From Candidatus Bathyarchaeota archaeon (GTDB lineage: Archaea; Thermoproteota; Bathyarchaeia; Bathyarchaeales; Bathycorpusculaceae): DNA of 59,789 nucleotides. Where the stretch lies: the NCBI GenBank assembly GCA_963739305.1, contig CAVTZU010000014.1, positions 1 to 59,789 of the forward strand. The letters run 5' to 3'. This document shows positions 9,012 to 15,788 of this stretch, piece after piece. The notes beneath the pieces are model-generated. The model was not told the DNA's origin. It saw nothing but the letters and a program-made list of their open reading frames with translations, and ran no database searches. How positions within the stretch are numbered: the stretch's first letter is position 1; every line of letters begins with the position of its first letter. A program made the translations under genes and the position numbers.

Positions 9012-9107
9012 TGGCGGGCCCGCAGGGATTTGAACCCTGGGTGTCCGGTCTTTCCAGACTTCCGGCTCCGAAGGCCGACGCCTTAATCCTGACTGGGCTA
9101 CGGGCCC
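9012..9107 (-). tRNA. tRNA-Arg(TCG) with 17-nt non-canonical intron (9043-9059, position 45/46)
   Basis: GGGCCCG acceptor stem, anticodon loop CT-TCG-GA, CAGGG-TTCAAAT-CCCTG T arm, encoded CCA; insert forms CCGG-AAG...CCGG-ACA bulge-helix-bulge. Confidence 0.9.
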
Positions 9108-9210: not shown

Positions 9211-9426
9211 ATGTCGCTAAGAAAAATCGAGCTAGCAACTTTGGAAAGTGTCCCTCATAGAGTGGACAACCTCAAGAGAAGCCTAGAAATCATCTATGGA
9301 GCAAGACTCCAAGCATTCCCGCGAGACATTCCGATGGATCGACTTTTCCCAACAGAGGATTTCCTTGAAAATGACAAACTTGCGCTCGTTTTCATGAAGA
9401 CCGTCAACGAAGACTACGACGTTCCA
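9211..9426 (+). pseudogene. 5' part of tandem ParB/Srx-domain gene interrupted by the integrated element
   Basis: LFPTEDFLE...DYDVP; continues in frame at 15025 after excision. Confidence 0.9.
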
Positions 9427-9450
9427 ATAATAACGAGTCTAGCGCACTAA
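9421..9450. repeat. attL: core GTTCCA (9421-9426) plus arm ATAATAAC-N5-TAGCGCACTAA
   Basis: Core repeated directly at 15019-15024; arm is an inverted copy of 14995-15018. Confidence 0.85.
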
Positions 9451-9496
9451 AATCATAAGCTACATAGAAAAAAGAAGGGAAGTGTAGCGTACGCTC

Positions 9497-9643
9497 CTAA
9501 GCTGCTAGGCCTTCTTGCAGTTGGAGTATGCCTGTGCGCATAACGTAGTCTATGAAATCTTGGAAGTTATCAAAGGCCAACTGTTCTTTTAGTTCCCGGT
9601 AGAAGTATTTGAGATCTATTTCAGTTTGGATTAGTTCCTTCAT
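9497..9643 (-). CDS. Small hypothetical protein (48 aa)
   Basis: GAGGTGA RBS then MKELIQTEIDLKYFYRELKEQLAFDNFQDFIDYVMRTGILQLQEGLAA*, followed by a T-rich terminator; below ORF-track cutoff. Confidence 0.6.
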   Translation of the reverse strand: MKELIQTEIDLKYFYRELKEQLAFDNFQDFIDYVMRTGILQLQEGLAA

Positions 9644-9793
9644 GTCATCACCTCGAGACTTTATTAGCCGGTGGTAAAGTTAGGGTTTGGGAATTAACTA
9701 AGGCATATCTATGACTCATTGATATAGGCCAAAGTCTTTTTGTCCCAGTAATCTTTGACAGAAAGAAAGCGATTCTATGTTACTCGATAGTAG

Positions 9794-10451
9794 CTAGATA
9801 TGATAAATTCTGTCAATATCTTCTTCCCAAGAACCCTTTACATAAGCAGTAGTCGAGTCTAGTCTTCTCAATCCCATGAACTCTTTAAGCTTCCAGGCAT
9901 CGCTGCGGAAAACTAATCTTCCGTAAATGGTTTCAGTCACGCTTCTGAACCAATGCGGAAATCTGTTTGTTGTCTGATATATGATCCAATATGTCTCTCT
10001 TGCGCCCTAACGGTTTGTTCCAAAAGAAAGCTAGATCCTCAAGAGCTGGGTATCTTCCTCTTGGAAATACATAGCTATCTTCTGTTGGAACATTCACGAG
10101 CCAATCTTCAAACTTCCTAGTGAAATATCCTAGACTTCCTCTTTTAGGAAGTACAATCTTCTTTCTTAATTCTCCATGCTTCAACGTCTGCACATTAGCT
10201 AATTCAATCCGTGACTTGTAGATTCTGAATTGCAGCTTTCTAAGTTTCAGGACCTCACTAATCCTCAATCCGGTTAGAATCAAGAGACAAACTAGAGCCT
10301 GGTCTCGTTGCTGATAATCAGTTTCGTTATCAGATTTGTATGGCCACTTGCATTTATCAACTAAGTTTTCCAAGTCATGCCATAGCCTTTCATCTAAGAA
10401 TATCGGTATATCCGTAACCTTCCGCTTTCGTTTCTTCCTAGAACCCTGCAT
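9794..10451 (-). CDS. Small XerC-like tyrosine recombinase (catalytic domain only), frameshift near 9995
   Basis: LTGLRISE (Arg I) and TLKH (Lys); after a shift in an AGAGAG run it reads FPHWFR (HxxR), FMGL and TTAYV (catalytic Tyr) to TAG at 9794. Confidence 0.85.
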
Positions 10452-10510
10452 TTTTACCTCACAATCCCATAACATAGAAGACATAATCTACAAATGTCTT
10501 TTAGTATGAT

Positions 10511-11257
10511 CTATTCGCCTTCCTCAGAGTCTTCTATGGATTTGCTAACCTCCTTGGTGGCTTGTGAACTGTTAAGGAAGGTGTGCTTCAAATGTTTGAT
10601 AATTTCTCGTTTAACTTCTTCTGCTTCAAGATTGTACTGTCTTCCTATGTCCTTCATGTTTGGATGATTCATGTACAGTCTCGCTAGTTGGCAGCATAGA
10701 GGTTGCTCGAACATCGGTACTTCCTTTTTCATACTGAAAATAGCGTCATCTTTGCAGTTATACGAGATTGAAGTCTTAGGCAGATCATTAAGAAAGTAAT
10801 GGTCATTATTGTAGAAGTCAGTTACCTTAGCGTTGTGTAGGCTAATCTTACTTATTCGAGCATCTAAGATGTCTGAGTCCATGAATCCTGAATCAACAAA
10901 CTTAGCGGAAGGTGCTACACCGATTAGGCAGCAGTCATAGTGCCGGATGAGTTGGATTAAGTCCATGATCTTCTTGTTTTGCTCTGTCATAAAGCTGAGT
11001 TTCTTGATGTGTTTTCCAGCTTCATCTAGAACATAGGTCTTCTTGCCTGGAGCGTGTTTAAGCCAATCTTCCAGGTCCGGATAGTTGGTTATTTGCTGAA
11101 CGTAATAAGATTCTGTCTTAATGTTCGTTGCAAAATGTTTTCGGTATTCGTTGTCATGGCAGATTTCCATTAGAAGCATGGATATGTTTGTTTTTCCAGA
11201 TCCTTTGTAACCATCTATAAAGATGATCGCGCCATCAAGTTTCAGGATTGTTTCCAA
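10511..11257 (-). CDS. P-loop ATPase, Zot/viral morphogenesis-packaging-like, with C-terminal HTH-like segment
   Basis: Walker A GYKGSGKT, ATNI, Walker B YVLDEAG, QLIRH; C-terminal MKDIGRQYNLEAEEVKREI. Confidence 0.75.
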   Translation of the reverse strand: METILKLDGAIIFIDGYKGSGKTNISMLLMEICHDNEYRKHFATNIKTESYYVQQITNYPDLEDWLKHAPGKKTYVLDEAGKHIKKLSFMTEQNKKIMDLIQLIRHYDCCLIGVAPSAKFVDSGFMDSDILDARISKISLHNAKVTDFYNNDHYFLNDLPKTSISYNCKDDAIFSMKKEVPMFEQPLCCQLARLYMNHPNMKDIGRQYNLEAEEVKREIIKHLKHTFLNSSQATKEVSKSIEDSEEGE

Positions 11258-11579
11258 TGGTCCCGGAACTATTATCCTGGTTAGGAATTTCTGTCCTCCT
11301 CATACTATATCGCTTTCGTGTATCACCTAAGATAGCTGATAACTTGGTTAGTTCGGTGCAAGATGCCATGAAGTCTGACATACCTAGAATTTCGATTATC
11401 TTCAATGCTCTTTCTCGTCTGTTCTTGATCTGCATTATTTCAGGCCAATGCTTAATGAGAGTGTAAATGTCGCCATATGAACCTAAGAGACCGAGCATTT
11501 TTAGGTCGTCATGTTTTTCTGAGGCTTGGCCTCCGAGGTAGATTTGTTGCTCAACGTTGAAATCTGATCGTGTACTCAT
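11235..11579 (-). CDS. Hypothetical element protein
   Basis: ATGA overlap with upstream gene; overlaps ATPase start. Confidence 0.65.
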   Translation of the reverse strand: MSTRSDFNVEQQIYLGGQASEKHDDLKMLGLLGSYGDIYTLIKHWPEIMQIKNRRERALKIIEILGMSDFMASCTELTKLSAILGDTRKRYSMRRTEIPNQDNSSGTIGNNPET

Positions 11580-12001
11580 TGAGTTTTGCCTCGATTCCAC
11601 CAATGTTTCTTAGCTGCCGGTGTTACTTCTGGTGCCGGTTGAGTGCTTATTGCAGGAAGATTAATGGACACCGGCATAGTTTCTTGACGTTTCGCATTAG
11701 CCATAAGAATTCCTTCCTTTCTGCCTTCACCTTCAATAGCTATACTGTAAACGTCTTCCATGACAGCAACATCTTTCCAGAATCCCATTTCTTCCTGGTA
11801 TTCGTTAGCTATCAAACGCATGGCACTATGTCCGTAAAAATCGTGTTCGGTTAGTCTTGCTTTTTCTCTTTCGTCACGCATATTCAGGAGATAGGTAAAG
11901 ATGTCTTCGTCAGCTGAGAGTCCTAATCGTGCCCGTATGATCTGCCGTATTTCTTCTACCATTTCCTTGAATTGTTCCGGATTCATGTCTTGTTCTGTCA
12001 A
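11576..12001 (-). CDS. Hypothetical element protein (YSIAIEGEGRKE motif)
   Basis: ATGA overlaps at both ends (translational coupling). Confidence 0.7.
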   Translation of the reverse strand: MTEQDMNPEQFKEMVEEIRQIIRARLGLSADEDIFTYLLNMRDEREKARLTEHDFYGHSAMRLIANEYQEEMGFWKDVAVMEDVYSIAIEGEGRKEGILMANAKRQETMPVSINLPAISTQPAPEVTPAAKKHWWNRGKTQ

Positions 12002-12414
12002 ATTCGGAGCCTACCACTAATCAGTAAGTAGTTAATCACTATGCCAGCGATTCCCATGATAATCACAATCCAAAGCACAATGTTCTCTTTGGTTTTACCA
12101 ATGTCTCTATATCTCGCATGGAAGGCCTCTAGGAAATTGATTCTCCTCGCTTGTTGATAGCTCAAAATCGGAGGCACAACATTGTTATCTTTCGTGAAAT
12201 GAATCGCTTCCGTAGCATAAGGCATACATTCAACTGCCCACTTTCCGCCTTTAATCGGGATAAGACAGTCCTGAGTGTATTTGATCGCCCATTCACGGCG
12301 TTTACCTTTAGCCTTGTCAATGATTATTTTCTGATTTCGACCGTCAGGCTTACGCCAATAGACTTTTTCTGGATTTTCTCTTACTCTAACAAGAATTTTT
12401 CCTTTATTGAACAT
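11998..12414 (-). CDS. Basic protein with C-terminal transmembrane helix
   Basis: GGAGG RBS; IVLWIVIIMGIAGIVINYLLI. Confidence 0.7.
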   Translation of the reverse strand: MFNKGKILVRVRENPEKVYWRKPDGRNQKIIIDKAKGKRREWAIKYTQDCLIPIKGGKWAVECMPYATEAIHFTKDNNVVPPILSYQQARRINFLEAFHARYRDIGKTKENIVLWIVIIMGIAGIVINYLLISGRLRI

Positions 12415-12419
12415 TCTAC

Positions 12420-12596
12420 TTATTCCTCCTGCCTATTTCTGTTGAAACACTTGGCATGGTAAAATTCCTTGAATGCATGATAATGTCGAACTACGATCTG
12501 ATCGCCAAGCTTGAAACTTCTGCTACATGAGAAACATTCTGAGGCCGGTATCTCAGACTTATCGAGTAACTTGAAAAAAGTGGTCTTAATGCTCAT
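12420..12596 (-). CDS. Small zinc-finger protein (58 aa, CxxC...HxxC)
   Basis: GAGGGTGA RBS; MSIKTTFF...ECFSC...FYHAKCFNRNRQEE*; below ORF-track cutoff. Confidence 0.7.
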   Translation of the reverse strand: MSIKTTFFKLLDKSEIPASECFSCSRSFKLGDQIVVRHYHAFKEFYHAKCFNRNRQEE

Positions 12597-12625
12597 TTTG
12601 AGAAATCACCCTCAGGACCAAATAG

Positions 12626-12855
12626 GAGGTGTATATGTGTGTAGAGGTGTACTATGGGAGGTGTACTTACTTCTCTACTTCTCTCTTCTCTCTTAAGCTG
12701 CATACGCTCATACACTACTACACACATACACCCTACACACATAGACTCAAGATTCATAATGAAAGGTTCATAGGTTTGAATTCTGGAGGGGGGAAAAATG
12801 AAAGGCCGTCGAGTACACCTGTCTACACATGTACATGTACACCTACACCTCTACG
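12626..12855. repeat. Origin-like repeat region of the element
   Basis: Direct GAGGTGTA x3, several inverted TACACC(T) copies, 17-18-bp inverted repeat, pyrimidine tract, G run, GTACATGTAC palindrome. Confidence 0.55.
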
Positions 12856-13082
12856 CGTCGTATCTTGTCGTTCACTTTATCCACTTCAAAACCTTGATCG
12901 CCGGTAGCTTGCAGGTCCTCCAGGTACTCGATAACTCTAGGCCGAGAAAGACCTTCTTTAACCGCAAATCGTGCGGCAGTCTGAGTCAAAGGGATCTCTT
13001 TGAACTCGTTAAGTAGTCCTTGAGTGAAACGTGCGAGTCTATCATAACGCTCTCGTTTTTTGTCAGCTCCATCGCCCCCCAC
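12843..13082 (-). CDS. Small winged-helix-like DNA-binding protein
   Basis: AARFAVKEGLSRPRVIEYLEDL...FEVD..KIRR helix-turn-helix plus wing pattern. Confidence 0.55.
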   Translation of the reverse strand: MGGDGADKKRERYDRLARFTQGLLNEFKEIPLTQTAARFAVKEGLSRPRVIEYLEDLQATGDQGFEVDKVNDKIRRVEV

Positions 13083-13084
13083 TC

Positions 13085-13204
13085 TTAGGCCCCCCGTTTT
13101 TCGCCTCGCAGGATTGCCCGGCAGTCACTAATCTGAGCTTCAATGTCCAGAAGTTTATCGCGGACCCGTTGTAGCTTGACCTCGGCAGATTCGGCCTCGG
13201 TCAT
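13085..13204 (-). CDS. Small coiled-coil peptide (39 aa)
   Basis: ATG directly after the RHH stop; MTEAESAEVKLQRVRDKLLDIEAQISDCRAILRGEKRGA*. Confidence 0.5.
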   Translation of the reverse strand: MTEAESAEVKLQRVRDKLLDIEAQISDCRAILRGEKRGA

Positions 13205-13363
13205 TTAGAAAGACCGAGCCTCCAGAGCACGTTTAACTATTGAGCGGACCGCATGAGAAAGATTCAGATATTTGCCTTCGTTGACTAAGGCCTGAATTTG
13301 TGCTTTCTCAACCGATGGAATGCGGGCAACAATGTATGAATCGTTGAGTTTTTCGCGTTTCAT
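13205..13363 (-). CDS. Ribbon-helix-helix (CopG/Arc-like) regulator (52 aa)
   Basis: YIVARIP..EKAQIQALVNEGKYLNLSHAVRSIV, typical archaeal RHH pattern; below ORF-track cutoff. Confidence 0.75.
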   Translation of the reverse strand: MKREKLNDSYIVARIPSVEKAQIQALVNEGKYLNLSHAVRSIVKRALEARSF

Positions 13364-13400
13364 ACACGGATGAGATAATAAACCTTAAGTAATACATTCA

Positions 13401-13850
13401 GTGAAACATCAATCCATGAACATAATTTCACCTGATGAAATGCTGAAGAAATATGGAAAGTGGATTAATCGAGATAAATTCATCAATTTAGTCGCTCAGG
13501 AGAGACACGTAGGTAACCGTCAAGCCTGGAATATCATAAAGAAAGAGTCTCACGCAATCAAACACGTCTATACTGATCGGAGCACAGTCTACGGACTAGA
13601 AGAATTTGGGCCTCCAAAACCGAAGATTGAAGGGAATTTCCAGCGTTTCGGCTTCTTTCAATGGTTAAACGCGAGAGCTGAGAGACAGAAGAAAGAGCAA
13701 ATCGAGTATAGAAAAGAGATATTACTAGATAAAATTCACTATGAAGAACTCTTAGCCGAAGAAAACCCTGTAGAATTTGAAATTATGAAGAAATGCGCTG
13801 AAAAAGACAGAGAAATGTTAAAACTCATCGAAAGCGAAGAAAAAAAGTAG
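13401..13850 (+). CDS. Hypothetical protein divergent from RHH gene, possible wHTH N-terminus (repressor or excisionase candidate)
   Basis: Only plus-strand gene of the element; converges on the integrase. Confidence 0.55.
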   Translation: MKHQSMNIISPDEMLKKYGKWINRDKFINLVAQERHVGNRQAWNIIKKESHAIKHVYTDRSTVYGLEEFGPPKPKIEGNFQRFGFFQWLNARAERQKKEQIEYRKEILLDKIHYEELLAEENPVEFEIMKKCAEKDREMLKLIESEEKK

Positions 13851-13852
13851 GA

Positions 13853-14941
13853 TTAGGTTTGCTGTCTTAGTTCTCGGACTGCCTTTTCCAGGTTAACTAG
13901 CATTTCCTCGGTTCGTTCCAATCGTTTCTTCAGATCCTCATTCTCTCTCTTGATGTCTTCCTGAATAATCATGCGTTGTGGCTTGATGTTTAGATAATGA
14001 TTGTAGAGTTTCGGGTACTTCTGTTCAATGCCTTCCTTCAGTCTAAGATAAGTTGCGTCACCGTGAGGAATTGCTTTTCCGACGATGTACTTAGCTTCTG
14101 AATCGCTGAATCCGCCTTTCAAGAGTGAATTGAATGTCCATGCTCGTATTCGATGAAACCTCACTAGGCCAGTCGTGTTTAGGTTGGCTTGATGTGCGAC
14201 ACGTTTGATAAAGGTGTTCAAACCGCTTTTGGATATGCTGAAGGGTGACTGGTCAGGGTAGAGTTTCCAGTATTCTTTCAATGCGTAGATGGCTAATGGA
14301 TTCAACACTGCTAGGCGTGGGACATGTGTTTTGGTTCTGATAGTCTCGAAATAGACGTATTCTTTGCCTTCTGCATCTGCCTTCTTGATGTGCGCTTGAA
14401 TCAGATCTTTGTCCAGTTGAATGAAGTCGTGTTCCTCCCATCCTAGACTGCACGCGGAAGAAATCAGAGCCTTACCTCGCACGTCAGCGACATCGTACAT
14501 CTTTCCCAAGTCGCCGTTAGCAAAATAATGACTGTGCGTGTCATCCTCTCCGTTTATCCTCTTTCCTTTCAGCAGTAGTGGTTTTTCTAGGTACATGCCG
14601 AAACTCTGGACAGCCGTCATAACTCCGCTTATGCCGTTTGCTGAAAGACTCTTGCCAGGAACGACGGTTAGGTTGCTTGCGTCTTTCATGTGTCCGTGTC
14701 GGTGCTTCCTCGTGTAAACATGGCCTTCACCGACGGGTTCACTGTTCTGAAACTGCAATAACAGAGTTTTCATTTCTTTGGTTCCTAACGCCTTCCACTG
14801 TTCAAGGCTAAGATTCTTTTCTTTCCCTAACCATTTGAAGAAGAAGCTGATTCTCCAAATATAGGTTGAACGTGTGCTTTTAGTGCGGCACTCACTTAAC
14901 CAACTTGACACGTCTACGTCGCTCAAGATGTTGGAACTCAT
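13853..14941 (-). CDS. Tyrosine integrase with core-binding domain and divergent active site
   Basis: STRSTY..FFKWL N-domain; SLGWE (Arg I position), RTKT, FHRIR, IVGK, DATYL; C-terminal coiled coil; adjacent to attR. Confidence 0.85.
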   Translation of the reverse strand: MSSNILSDVDVSSWLSECRTKSTRSTYIWRISFFFKWLGKEKNLSLEQWKALGTKEMKTLLLQFQNSEPVGEGHVYTRKHRHGHMKDASNLTVVPGKSLSANGISGVMTAVQSFGMYLEKPLLLKGKRINGEDDTHSHYFANGDLGKMYDVADVRGKALISSACSLGWEEHDFIQLDKDLIQAHIKKADAEGKEYVYFETIRTKTHVPRLAVLNPLAIYALKEYWKLYPDQSPFSISKSGLNTFIKRVAHQANLNTTGLVRFHRIRAWTFNSLLKGGFSDSEAKYIVGKAIPHGDATYLRLKEGIEQKYPKLYNHYLNIKPQRMIIQEDIKRENEDLKKRLERTEEMLVNLEKAVRELRQQT

Positions 14942-14994
14942 TCCAGATCACTACTAGAAGGTAATAGCACTTTAGATTTATAAGCCTTTGTATC

Positions 14995-15024
14995 TTAGTG
15001 CGCTAATTAGGTTACTATGTTCCA
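14995..15024. repeat. attR: arm TTAGTGCGCTA-N5-GTTACTAT plus core GTTCCA (15019-15024)
   Basis: Inverted relative to attL arm with identical spacing. Confidence 0.85.
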
Positions 15025-15591
15025 ATCATAGCCGTCGAAAGAGGTGAAGACTACTTCGTTCTCGACGGCCATCACAGGTCCTTCATCCATGTAAAACTGA
15101 AAAAGAAAACCATCAAAGCAAGAGTCCTGGTATTCCCCAAAAACTCAAGCTACCGCGAAGTCTCAAGAGCCTCATTCGAGGATTTCCCAATAAAAGAGAT
15201 CAGGAAGATTGAGGACCCAATTCTGAAAGTTTGGGGAAGCATACTCAACATTCTCAAACAGTATGAAGCTTTATACCACGTCCACTTTCACATGGAAAAA
15301 AAGAACCTTGTTCTAGAAAAATTACACCCAACGCAACCTCAGATCATGACATCACAGCTCAAAGGGATGAAAAGAATAGTTGCCCCGATCACATGCATTG
15401 AGTGCAACGGAGAGTACTACGTTTTGGATGGTCATGCAAGATGCATCCGAGCCCGACAGCTAGGTTCAGAATCGATACAGGCAATGGTCCTGCAACCGGA
15501 GGTCCACGTGAACTTCGGGATCATCAAGACCGCCAATGAAATGAAGCTCAAAAGCCTCGACGACATTTCGATCTGCAAAGACGCACACTAA
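15019..15591 (+). pseudogene. 3' part of tandem ParB/Srx-domain gene
   Basis: Stop-free from 15019: VPIIAVERGEDYFVLDGHHR...LHPTQ...APITC...YYVLDGHAR. Confidence 0.9.
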
Positions 15592-15685
15592 TTTTCTGGC
15601 CACCTTTCTATCGAGAGCAAACGACACTTAAGTCCCCAAAAACCCTTAAAAACAGTCCAAGGTCTATACTAGATGTCTCGATTGA

Positions 15686-15760
15686 GGGCCGGTAGCTCAG
15701 CTTGGCTGGAGCATTCGGCTGATAACCGAAAGGTCGCCGGTTCGAATCCGGCTCGGCCCA
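15686..15760 (+). tRNA. tRNA-Ile(GAT)
   Basis: Cloverleaf with TTCGG-CT-GAT-AA-CCGAA and GCCGG-TTCGAAT-CCGGC; CCA not encoded. Confidence 0.95.
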
Positions 15761-15788
15761 CTCCCATTTAGGTTCAGGTCGCGCGCGC

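Follow-up and report, generated by a model that had tools for sequence, protein, structure and literature searches.

What kind of attachment site allows a mobile element to enter the middle of a protein gene with which it shares 8 bp? The question is raised by contig CAVTZU010000014.1 of a Candidatus Bathyarchaeota archaeon (assembly GCA_963739305.1), whose positions 1 to 59,789, the whole stretch of DNA that was analysed, are called the window here. A 5.6-kb element occupies positions 9421-15026 and is a precise insertion within a gene of this Bathyarchaeia genome. The original prediction, made from the letters alone, had described its two ends as the halves of one compact, symmetric attachment (att) site with a 6-bp core and bipartite inverted arms, lying beside an integrase gene. 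From the evidence presented below it is likely that this is a cryptic integrative element which entered its target by conservative site-specific recombination, using its own 362-aa tyrosine recombinase and a mirror-symmetric element site (attP) with a 6-bp overlap.

A precise insertion with symmetric ends

Contigs carrying the empty site were obtained from four public peat-metagenome runs, all belonging to one study. In each of the four runs, contigs join position 9420 to position 15019 and skip 5598 bp, with 8 letters that can be assigned to either side of the joint. The joint contigs listed show 1-8 differences per flank piece of 121-667 nt, corresponding to about 99% identity to the flanks. 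Depth at the joints was 10.5-20.9, and the interval 9493-14805 was covered essentially not at all. Therefore, strains that are nearly identical at this locus exist without the element. The target site (attB) that had been reconstructed from the two ends is exactly the one carried by these element-free strains, and the ends are the real attachment site of an integrated element. The insertion is precise and the attB exact. The G+C content of the element (0.40-0.45) differs from that of the 5 kb on each side, which is mostly 0.46-0.50.

All sequence features described in the original prediction were found in their places (Table 1). The direct repeat is present, and only its length had to be changed, from 6 to 8 bp (9421-9428 = 15019-15026); the dyad axis does fall inside the 6-bp core. 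An 18-nt stretch around the direct repeat shows 83% identity between the left and the right end, and the terminal inverted pair is the longest inverted pair in the list of the repeat finder. The two 5-bp spacers are unrelated to each other in sequence. The 11-mer of the outer arm occurs once per strand in the 2,317,032-base genome, both times at the ends of the element, and the reversed 11-mer, used as a control, has no occurrence on either strand. The att pair reached 20/28 flanking inverted matches, against 15 for the runner-up among 733 shared 6-mer pairs between the region upstream of the integrase gene and the downstream DNA. When the ends were rejoined, the palindrome score was 19/26 with a 6-bp spacer; the best scores of 227 control segments of 258 nt, taken over the whole window, were 18 once, 17 twice and lower in all others. 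The symmetry of the ends is thus well above chance. By our own counts the half-sites of the system (P and P' on the element, B and B' on the target) share a loose common consensus, and the outer arm of the window element is itself nearly palindromic (10/12). The palindrome of 6/9 proposed for the attB half-sites was confirmed as a count, and is the weak part of the symmetry, with a binomial estimate of p about 0.01.

The integrase and the related elements

The integrase is encoded by an intact open reading frame (ORF) that lies 53 nt inside the right outer arm. It had no match in Pfam, and its match to a PHROG integrase was weak. A structural model was produced from an alignment of 25 sequences, with metagenomic relatives 36-64% identical. 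This model, with a predicted local distance difference test score of 87.2, consists of a core-binding domain (residues 1-117), a catalytic domain (144-317) and a long C-terminal helix; no separate (N-terminal) arm-binding domain is present in it. Foldseek returned archaeal XerA as the best match (E=4.4e-7), and also lambda Int (75-356), XerH, IntI, Tn1549 Int and Cre. In the structure search 26 PDB chains reached E<=0.001, and among the matches listed all were tyrosine recombinases; the catalytic domain of SSV1 Int was a weak fold match (E=3.1e-2). A search of PDB sequences with the integrase profile found no recombinase and gave only five spurious matches (E 0.38-0.78), so the family is remote in sequence. 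It contains 640, 276 and 104 cluster representatives at E<=1e-3, 1e-10 and 1e-30, respectively. Conservation was counted in 94 full-length sequences, the window integrase and 93 representatives. The catalytic residues K204 and R266 were conserved in all 94, Y298 in 93 and H263 in 89, and the four are invariant in the 25-sequence alignment.

Relatives of the integrase were collected at 31 metagenome and 3 genome loci, designated L and a number below. Where a genome host is named it belongs to the Bathyarchaeia, apart from one short contig that carries the label Anaerolineales. No integrase above 42% identity was found in 400 species genomes of the class, and no relative was found in IMG/VR. The cargo is almost wholly different among the related loci, with matches only for one small ORF and the target gene.

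The second complete element, L031, has an integrase only 33% identical to that of the window and carries a 6/6 core repeat, 8-bp inner arms that match at 5/8, 5-bp spacers and 11-bp outer arms that match at 10/11. Given the ends of L031, which were fixed independently, the chance of a 10/11 match at the exact offsets is about 1e-5 by our own estimate. The distance from the outer arm to the TATA-like box is 11 nt, as in the window. The flanks of L031 are contiguous in all 12 related genomes inspected, which thus represent empty sites, and the insertion follows shortly after the TATA-like box of a thiolase-like gene. No DDE transposase or Cas1 was found with Pfam among the 14 ORFs of L031. A homologous element thus has the same bipartite layout with other arm sequences; the arms of L031 are wholly unlike those of the window, and its outer arm is not palindromic. 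It is the layout that is kept and not the sequence, which has changed on both sides together. For the same reason the motif that had been suggested for searches, TAAC-N5-outer arm, is not common to the homologues. In IMG/VR this motif gave 17 single matches in unrelated contexts, with no element protein at the loci; the number was judged ordinary for 15 fixed bases, and the matches were treated as chance.

The position of the TATA-like box beside the right arm, which had also been pointed out in the original prediction, is conserved among the homologues. Boxes related to the outer arm of the window occur at the equal distance from the TATA-like box in L006, L018 and L007/8/16, and a different box, shared among L031, L019/22, L005 and L036, occurs at that same distance. 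The integrase of L006 is 62% identical to that of the window, and L006 is inserted at the same position of the same gene in another host, with a core that is the variant of that host lineage. L006 and L018, the latter either in a host or in the free form, have the same 8-mer adjoining the P arm and different DNA beyond it, which suggests that the core travels with the element. Five further loci (L009, L010, L012, L013 and L014) have one common junction within a gene, a 12-bp block being shared with the target, and 10 of 10 empty sites agree with it. The target here is the interior of a gene of about 356 codons, split at ..YWQI|M.., near residue 108. The same 12-bp block stands beside virus-like genes in L011 and L015, which are probably the free form. 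As a side observation, positions 1-8000 of L011, upstream of its related integrase, encode a YQBQ-like baseplate-type domain and an F5/8 type C domain; part of the family may thus belong to tailed viruses. In L007/L008 a third protein gene is probably the target. The resolved targets are unusual as well, being two gene interiors and one promoter with no tRNA gene among them, and the gene in the window is split at codon 72 of about 263.

Seven independent contigs (L006, L007, L009, L010, L012, L013 and L014) start 110-151 nt beyond the junction. Such starts look like assembly branch points where occupied and empty alleles coexist. Their use as an exact ruler for the junction was rejected, as the distances vary, and they serve as a rough indication only.

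Several results weigh against integration by the element's own tyrosine recombinase at a symmetric attP. When the window integrase was aligned with canonical small recombinases, the column of the first catalytic arginine (Arg I) was occupied by E169, as judged from the sequence alignment only. Across the family, Arg stands in this column in 12 of 94 sequences, with Glu in 29, Gly in 22 and Ser in 20, so the chemistry may deviate from the textbook. R202, conserved in 82/94 representatives, might substitute for the first Arg. Since Arg I is not in place, the 362-aa protein is considered a relative at the level of the fold, most likely working as tyrosine recombinases do, and not a canonical member. 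By our own count, the attB of L031 hardly resembles the inner arms of that element. The junction of the L009-L015 branch, with its 12-bp identity block, is separated from the TATA-like box by about 7 nt. Dyad symmetry was weak in four attP-like contexts, with inner matches of 3-6/8 and outer matches of 4-6/11. At the layout of core+8+5+11 the L009-L015 branch gave 6/8 inner and 4-6/11 outer matches, and L017 and L018 gave 3-4/8 inner and 6/11 outer matches; trials at random positions of the window reached 6/8 in 0.4% and 6/11 in 3.5% of cases. In 15 of 17 scanned loci, and in all of 10 genome loci (L086-L095), a second end of this layout was not found; in many of them the far end is probably outside the available DNA. 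A candidate second end in L024, with an equal score of 21 points for a 1.4-kb element, was rejected, as close relatives diverge before the supposed arm. Finally, no attP junction of a free circle was seen; the four peat runs contain no element DNA at all.

The layout scans gave nothing convincing in L004/26, L005, L012, L013, L020, L022, L029 and L032. A 10-nt inverted match in L005 was discarded since the rest of the layout is missing, and in L012 and L013 the missing half of the host gene was not within the 8-10 kb examined. L029, from the branch L020/23/24/27/28/29/L003, has a 17-nt direct repeat at 968 and 8201 that may mark the ends of the element; symmetric arms were not seen at these ends. 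The layout is thus conserved but not uniform, as it appears strong in two elements and weak or shifted in others. As an observation apart from these scans, insertions of the family are polymorphic in nature, though the first Arg is mostly missing.

Table 1. Features of the element and its surroundings, in window coordinates
Feature	Position	Strand	Basis or remark
Left core (proposed 6-bp overlap/crossover)	9421-9426	.	Read from the sequence
Left copy of 8-bp direct repeat	9421-9428	.	Sequence and repeat finder; at the empty-site joint, 8 letters can be placed on either side
Left inner arm (P' core-type half-site)	9427-9434	.	7/8 complementary to 15011-15018
Left spacer, 5 bp	9435-9439	.	Sequence
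Left outer arm	9440-9450	.	11/11 complementary to 14995-15005; 5 bp beyond inner arm
Right outer arm (P)	14995-15005	.	Sequence
Right spacer, 5 bp	15006-15010	.	Sequence
Right inner arm (P core-type half-site)	15011-15018	.	Sequence
Right core (proposed overlap)	15019-15024	.	Sequence
Right copy of 8-bp direct repeat	15019-15026	.	Sequence; empty-site joint
TATA-like box of integrase gene	14976-14983	-	34 nt upstream of ATG, 11 nt from right outer arm
Integrase, 362 aa	13853-14941	-	Model and Foldseek; reads inward from the right end
5' fragment of target gene, 72 codons	9211-9426	+	ORF list; aligns to uninterrupted frames in 6 relatives
3' fragment of target gene, 190 codons	15019-15588	+	Translation; 52-65% identity to uninterrupted genes in 6 relatives
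Small tyrosine recombinase, about 218 aa, catalytic domain only	9797-10451	-	Weak Pfam PF00589 match; frameshift near 9996-10006
P-loop ATPase (element cargo)	10511-11257	-	phrog_1979 E=1.4e-15; Zot-like phrog_197 E=5.8e-7; weak nSTAND3/AAA_14 matches
Non-coding stretch with several inverted repeats (I2, I4, I24)	12600-12850	.	Repeat finder
Small element ORFs	12843-13082; 13205-13363		Candidates for a regulator
tRNA-Arg(TCG), 96 nt	9012-9107	-	tRNA call; length could hold an intron
tRNA-Ile	15686-15761		tRNA call

Proposed recombination and competing explanations

The course of events that we consider likely is as follows. The element would have entered the middle of its target, a ParB/Srx-like gene, in a reaction catalysed by the integrase 13853-14941. 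Its attP, about 54 bp in total, would be composed of the 6-bp overlap, 8-bp core-type half-sites, 5-bp arbitrary spacers and 11-bp outer arms, and attB would offer the same 6-bp overlap (8 bp being identical here) with weaker half-sites and without outer arms. Integrase protomers would bind the inner arms, and strands would be exchanged at the two edges of the 6-bp overlap, which would have to match between the partners. The overlap is taken as 6 bp and not 8 because both complete elements have their dyad axis at the centre of the 6-bp core. As each integrated end keeps one inner and one outer arm, the ends therefore resemble terminal inverted repeats beside a short direct repeat. The clamp of a recombinase usually covers about 13-15 bp beside the cut. 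The outer arms are 14-24 bp out, beyond the cover of the clamp, so they are probably bound by something additional, which could be two further integrase protomers or a small DNA-binding protein encoded by the element; as extra binding sites, they would mark attP. Occupation of the right outer arm, 11 bp from the TATA-like box, would damp transcription of the integrase gene. Such an effect is plausible because the 11-nt distance from the TATA-like box is fixed in two branches and the promoter is overlapped in a third. The identity shared with the target is 8 bp in the window, 6 bp in L031 and 12 bp in one branch. An identity of only 6-8 bp might be sufficient, as the original prediction had held, and the site might be used as an integration tool.

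The same outer arms could be explained as operators for an element-encoded regulator (e.g. the ORF 12843-13082 or 13205-13363) which have no part in recombination, the site proper being then the 22-bp core of 8+6+8. This explanation, which we regard as somewhat unlikely, agrees with the position of the right arm, 11 nt from the TATA-like box, and of the related boxes found there in many homologues. The window arm is nearly palindromic (10/12), like sites of dimeric regulators, the 79-aa ORF of the element has a homologue beside the related integrase in L009, and the integrase model has no separate domain for arm binding. However, an operator does not account for the second copy of the arm at the far end, at the exact mirror distance from the crossover and with no evident promoter there, nor for the presence of this mirror copy in two independent elements (11/11 in the window, 10/11 in L031), and the arm of L031 is not palindromic. 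The roles of the outer arms as operators and in recombination are not mutually exclusive.

It is improbable that the ends are terminal inverted repeats next to a 6-bp target-site duplication or coupling sequence, left by a transposition-like insertion (through a tyrosine transposase of the Tn916/CTnDOT kind or another enzyme) with no need for identity in the target. Inverted ends beside a short direct repeat are the classical picture of a transposon. The repeat of L031 is 6 bp long, and that of the window could be 6 bp plus two chance matches, while the target of L031 shows no similarity to the arms. IntDOT also is without the first catalytic arginine, and it tolerates heterology. On the other hand, neither a DDE transposase nor Cas1 was matched by Pfam or PHROG among the 12 ORFs of the window element that were scanned. 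Diverged elements reuse the identical position in the same gene, L006 and L018 have the same 8-mer after the P arm in different contexts, and the cores of different branches are alike. Coupling sequences of the Tn916 type are generally not identical, and both flanking copies are identical in both complete elements. The transposon is thus disfavoured because the same positions are reused, the 8-mer appears to travel with the P arm in L006 and L018, and no transposase was found among the ORFs scanned.

Highly improbable is an action of the small recombinase (9797-10451), instead of the 362-aa protein, on the symmetric site: it keeps all canonical catalytic residues including the first Arg, and 347 nt separate it from the left outer arm (9450 to 9797), but its gene is frameshifted in the window and was unseen in the 34 other loci, mostly short, the complete L031 included (tblastn; Pfam on the L031 ORFs), and at many loci the site keeps a fixed position with respect to the promoter of the 362-aa gene.

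Recombination by the 362-aa protein at the symmetric attP could be taken further, in a form that we consider unlikely as a whole. The family would then be a distinct, autonomous subclass of tyrosine integrases, widespread in Bathyarchaeia and mostly without the first Arg, with an attP of about 54 bp that is perfectly dyad-symmetric (the 6-bp overlap between core half-sites, with symmetric accessory arms 5 bp farther out). In the target it would need only the 6-bp overlap and loosely matching half-sites. The outer arms would at the same time serve as an operator for the integrase promoter. Since it is genes or promoters that the elements split, and not tRNA genes, insertion and excision would be reversible gene switches, and the whole would make a very compact integration tool.

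Target gene, cargo and comparison with known systems

The target gene was searched for in 40 related genomes plus the window's own, and was found in seven relatives. In six of them (L038-L043) it is an uninterrupted open frame of 256-295 aa, in which the two fragments of the window abut, overlapping by two repeated codons; the seventh, L044, has a decayed copy. In the left integrated end (attL) the 5' fragment reads on into the element up to a stop at 9448-9450. The protein is a tandem ParB/Srx-like one with two DGHHR-type motifs. Its ParBc_2 matches in Pfam were weak and below the cut-off, and therefore "ParB-like" is a loose label; a library of defence systems gave no match to the gene. The left arm (9427-9444) resembles, even beyond the core, the target gene at the empty sites of L038/L039, with 15 of 17 positions alike and one gap by our own count. 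This likeness could represent mimicry of a half-site or a past exchange with such a host.

In all four runs a second joint was also seen, from 9231 to 15596, which skips 6364 bp, that is, the entire target gene with the element. Its identity is lower, with 6-11 differences per about 70-105 nt. Some relatives are therefore without the ParB-like gene between tRNA-Arg and tRNA-Ile (Table 1), and the target gene is itself variable. In the runs, the summed contig depth was very high at the tRNA-Arg gene, where loose ends were also numerous; a conserved tRNA common to many organisms would be expected to behave in this way.

No recognisable virion gene was found in the 5.6-kb element of the window, and none of the 16 contigs tested for circularity had terminal overlaps. 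The stretch 12600-12850 has inverted repeats of 24 nt (83%), 21 nt (86%) and 14 nt (93%), and only short overlapping ORFs without a family match; it may be a replication origin or a control region. Of the two recombinases in the original prediction, the small one carries the frameshift, and tblastn with its 183-aa ORF detected no counterpart at the 34 other, mostly short loci. Seventeen homologues of 129-230 aa were found in metagenomes, the best being P0032, an intact protein of 218 aa with 93% identity, whose tblastn match on the window is split between frames -1 and -2; no longer homologues of the 183-aa ORF were found. All canonical catalytic residues, the first Arg included, are present. 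Candidate roles of this protein are multimer resolution, or it may be a remnant.

Archaeal XerA/dif, bacterial Xer and Cre-loxP use a two-domain recombinase, as here, and XerA is the best structural match. The dif site has two 11-nt inverted repeats around a 6-nt spacer (PMC8371274). Common to Xer/dif, Cre/lox and the present elements are the inverted half-sites around a central region of 6-8 bp, here 6 bp, matching at 7/8 in the window and 5/8 in L031, and the model of the window integrase does not add a separate arm-binding domain. In contrast to both, the partners are unequal here, as attB shares 8 bp and partial half-sites and has no outer arms; the integrase is without a sequence-level match to any solved recombinase, and its first Arg is not in place. 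The inner arms of the window, moreover, are 8 bp long, unlike the dif repeats, and the process is the integration of a mobile element into a gene, not the resolution of dimers. With lambda, whose Int is among the top fold matches, the system shares an attP larger than attB, core-type inverted repeats around a short overlap, and extra sites on the element side only. The arm sites of lambda are asymmetric, far from the core, and read by an N-terminal domain together with host bending proteins (PMC2817482, PMC8371274), whereas the outer arms of the window are symmetric, lie 5 bp beyond the core sites, and face a model that has no N-terminal arm-binding domain.

The original prediction had set the short identity against longer tRNA identity at archaeal att sites. 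This contrast has to be tempered, as archaeal att sites of 8 bp were already reported (PMC8371274). Such short identities are not new: 8 bp is given for Thaumarchaeota elements, 11 bp for Msmi-Pro1 and 13 bp for SNJ2 (PMC8371274). The Thaumarchaeota elements, from a related host group, show an att identity down to 8 bp with a median of 17 bp, and 14 of their 68 insertions occupy the 3'-distal region of a protein gene (Krupovic et al. 2019, PMC6563490). They resemble the present family in their short identity and differ from it in that our targets are split in mid-gene or at a promoter. Inverted repeats appear in the accessible text of that paper only as terminal repeats of casposons and in a line of the methods. 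Archaeal mobile elements of the SSV and pNOB8 types also encode tyrosine recombinases, and the stretch that they have in common with tRNA genes is usually 40-50 bp long (PMC8371274). The window family, in contrast, shares 6-8 bp (12 bp in one branch) and has no tRNA target in the resolved cases. The SSV-type element has its attP inside the integrase gene and splits this gene on integration, and the integrase gene of the window stays whole. A symmetric pair of accessory arms close to the core, with a geometry kept across a family, was not found in the accessible text of the literature searched. The att site is of an ordinary kind in an unusually tidy form.

To our knowledge, the mobile elements of Bathyarchaeia, an abundant lineage of sediment and peat, are barely described. 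In the accessible part of a survey of this class (PMC10848311) integrases are mentioned, and the word "attachment" is not found. A 2021 review of archaeal tyrosine recombinases asks whether intragenic and intergenic targets have the needed dyad symmetry, and notes that such sites had never been put to the test (PMC8371274). The window element and L031, both delimited completely and with their attB, attL and right end (attR) known exactly, bear on this question, and in them the symmetry is strong on the element side and weak or absent on the target side. The empty sites and a second, distant element support the reading of the ends as an att site that combines symmetric arms with a short overlap. 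We hypothesize that 6-8 bp may be sufficient, that the integrase gene may be autoregulated and that the site could serve as a tool. attP and attB provide a short, defined pair of substrates, about 54 and about 24 bp, for a direct biochemical test. The family behind them comprises at least 104 clusters of sequences (E<=1e-30); the first Arg is mostly missing in it, and the insertions are polymorphic in nature.

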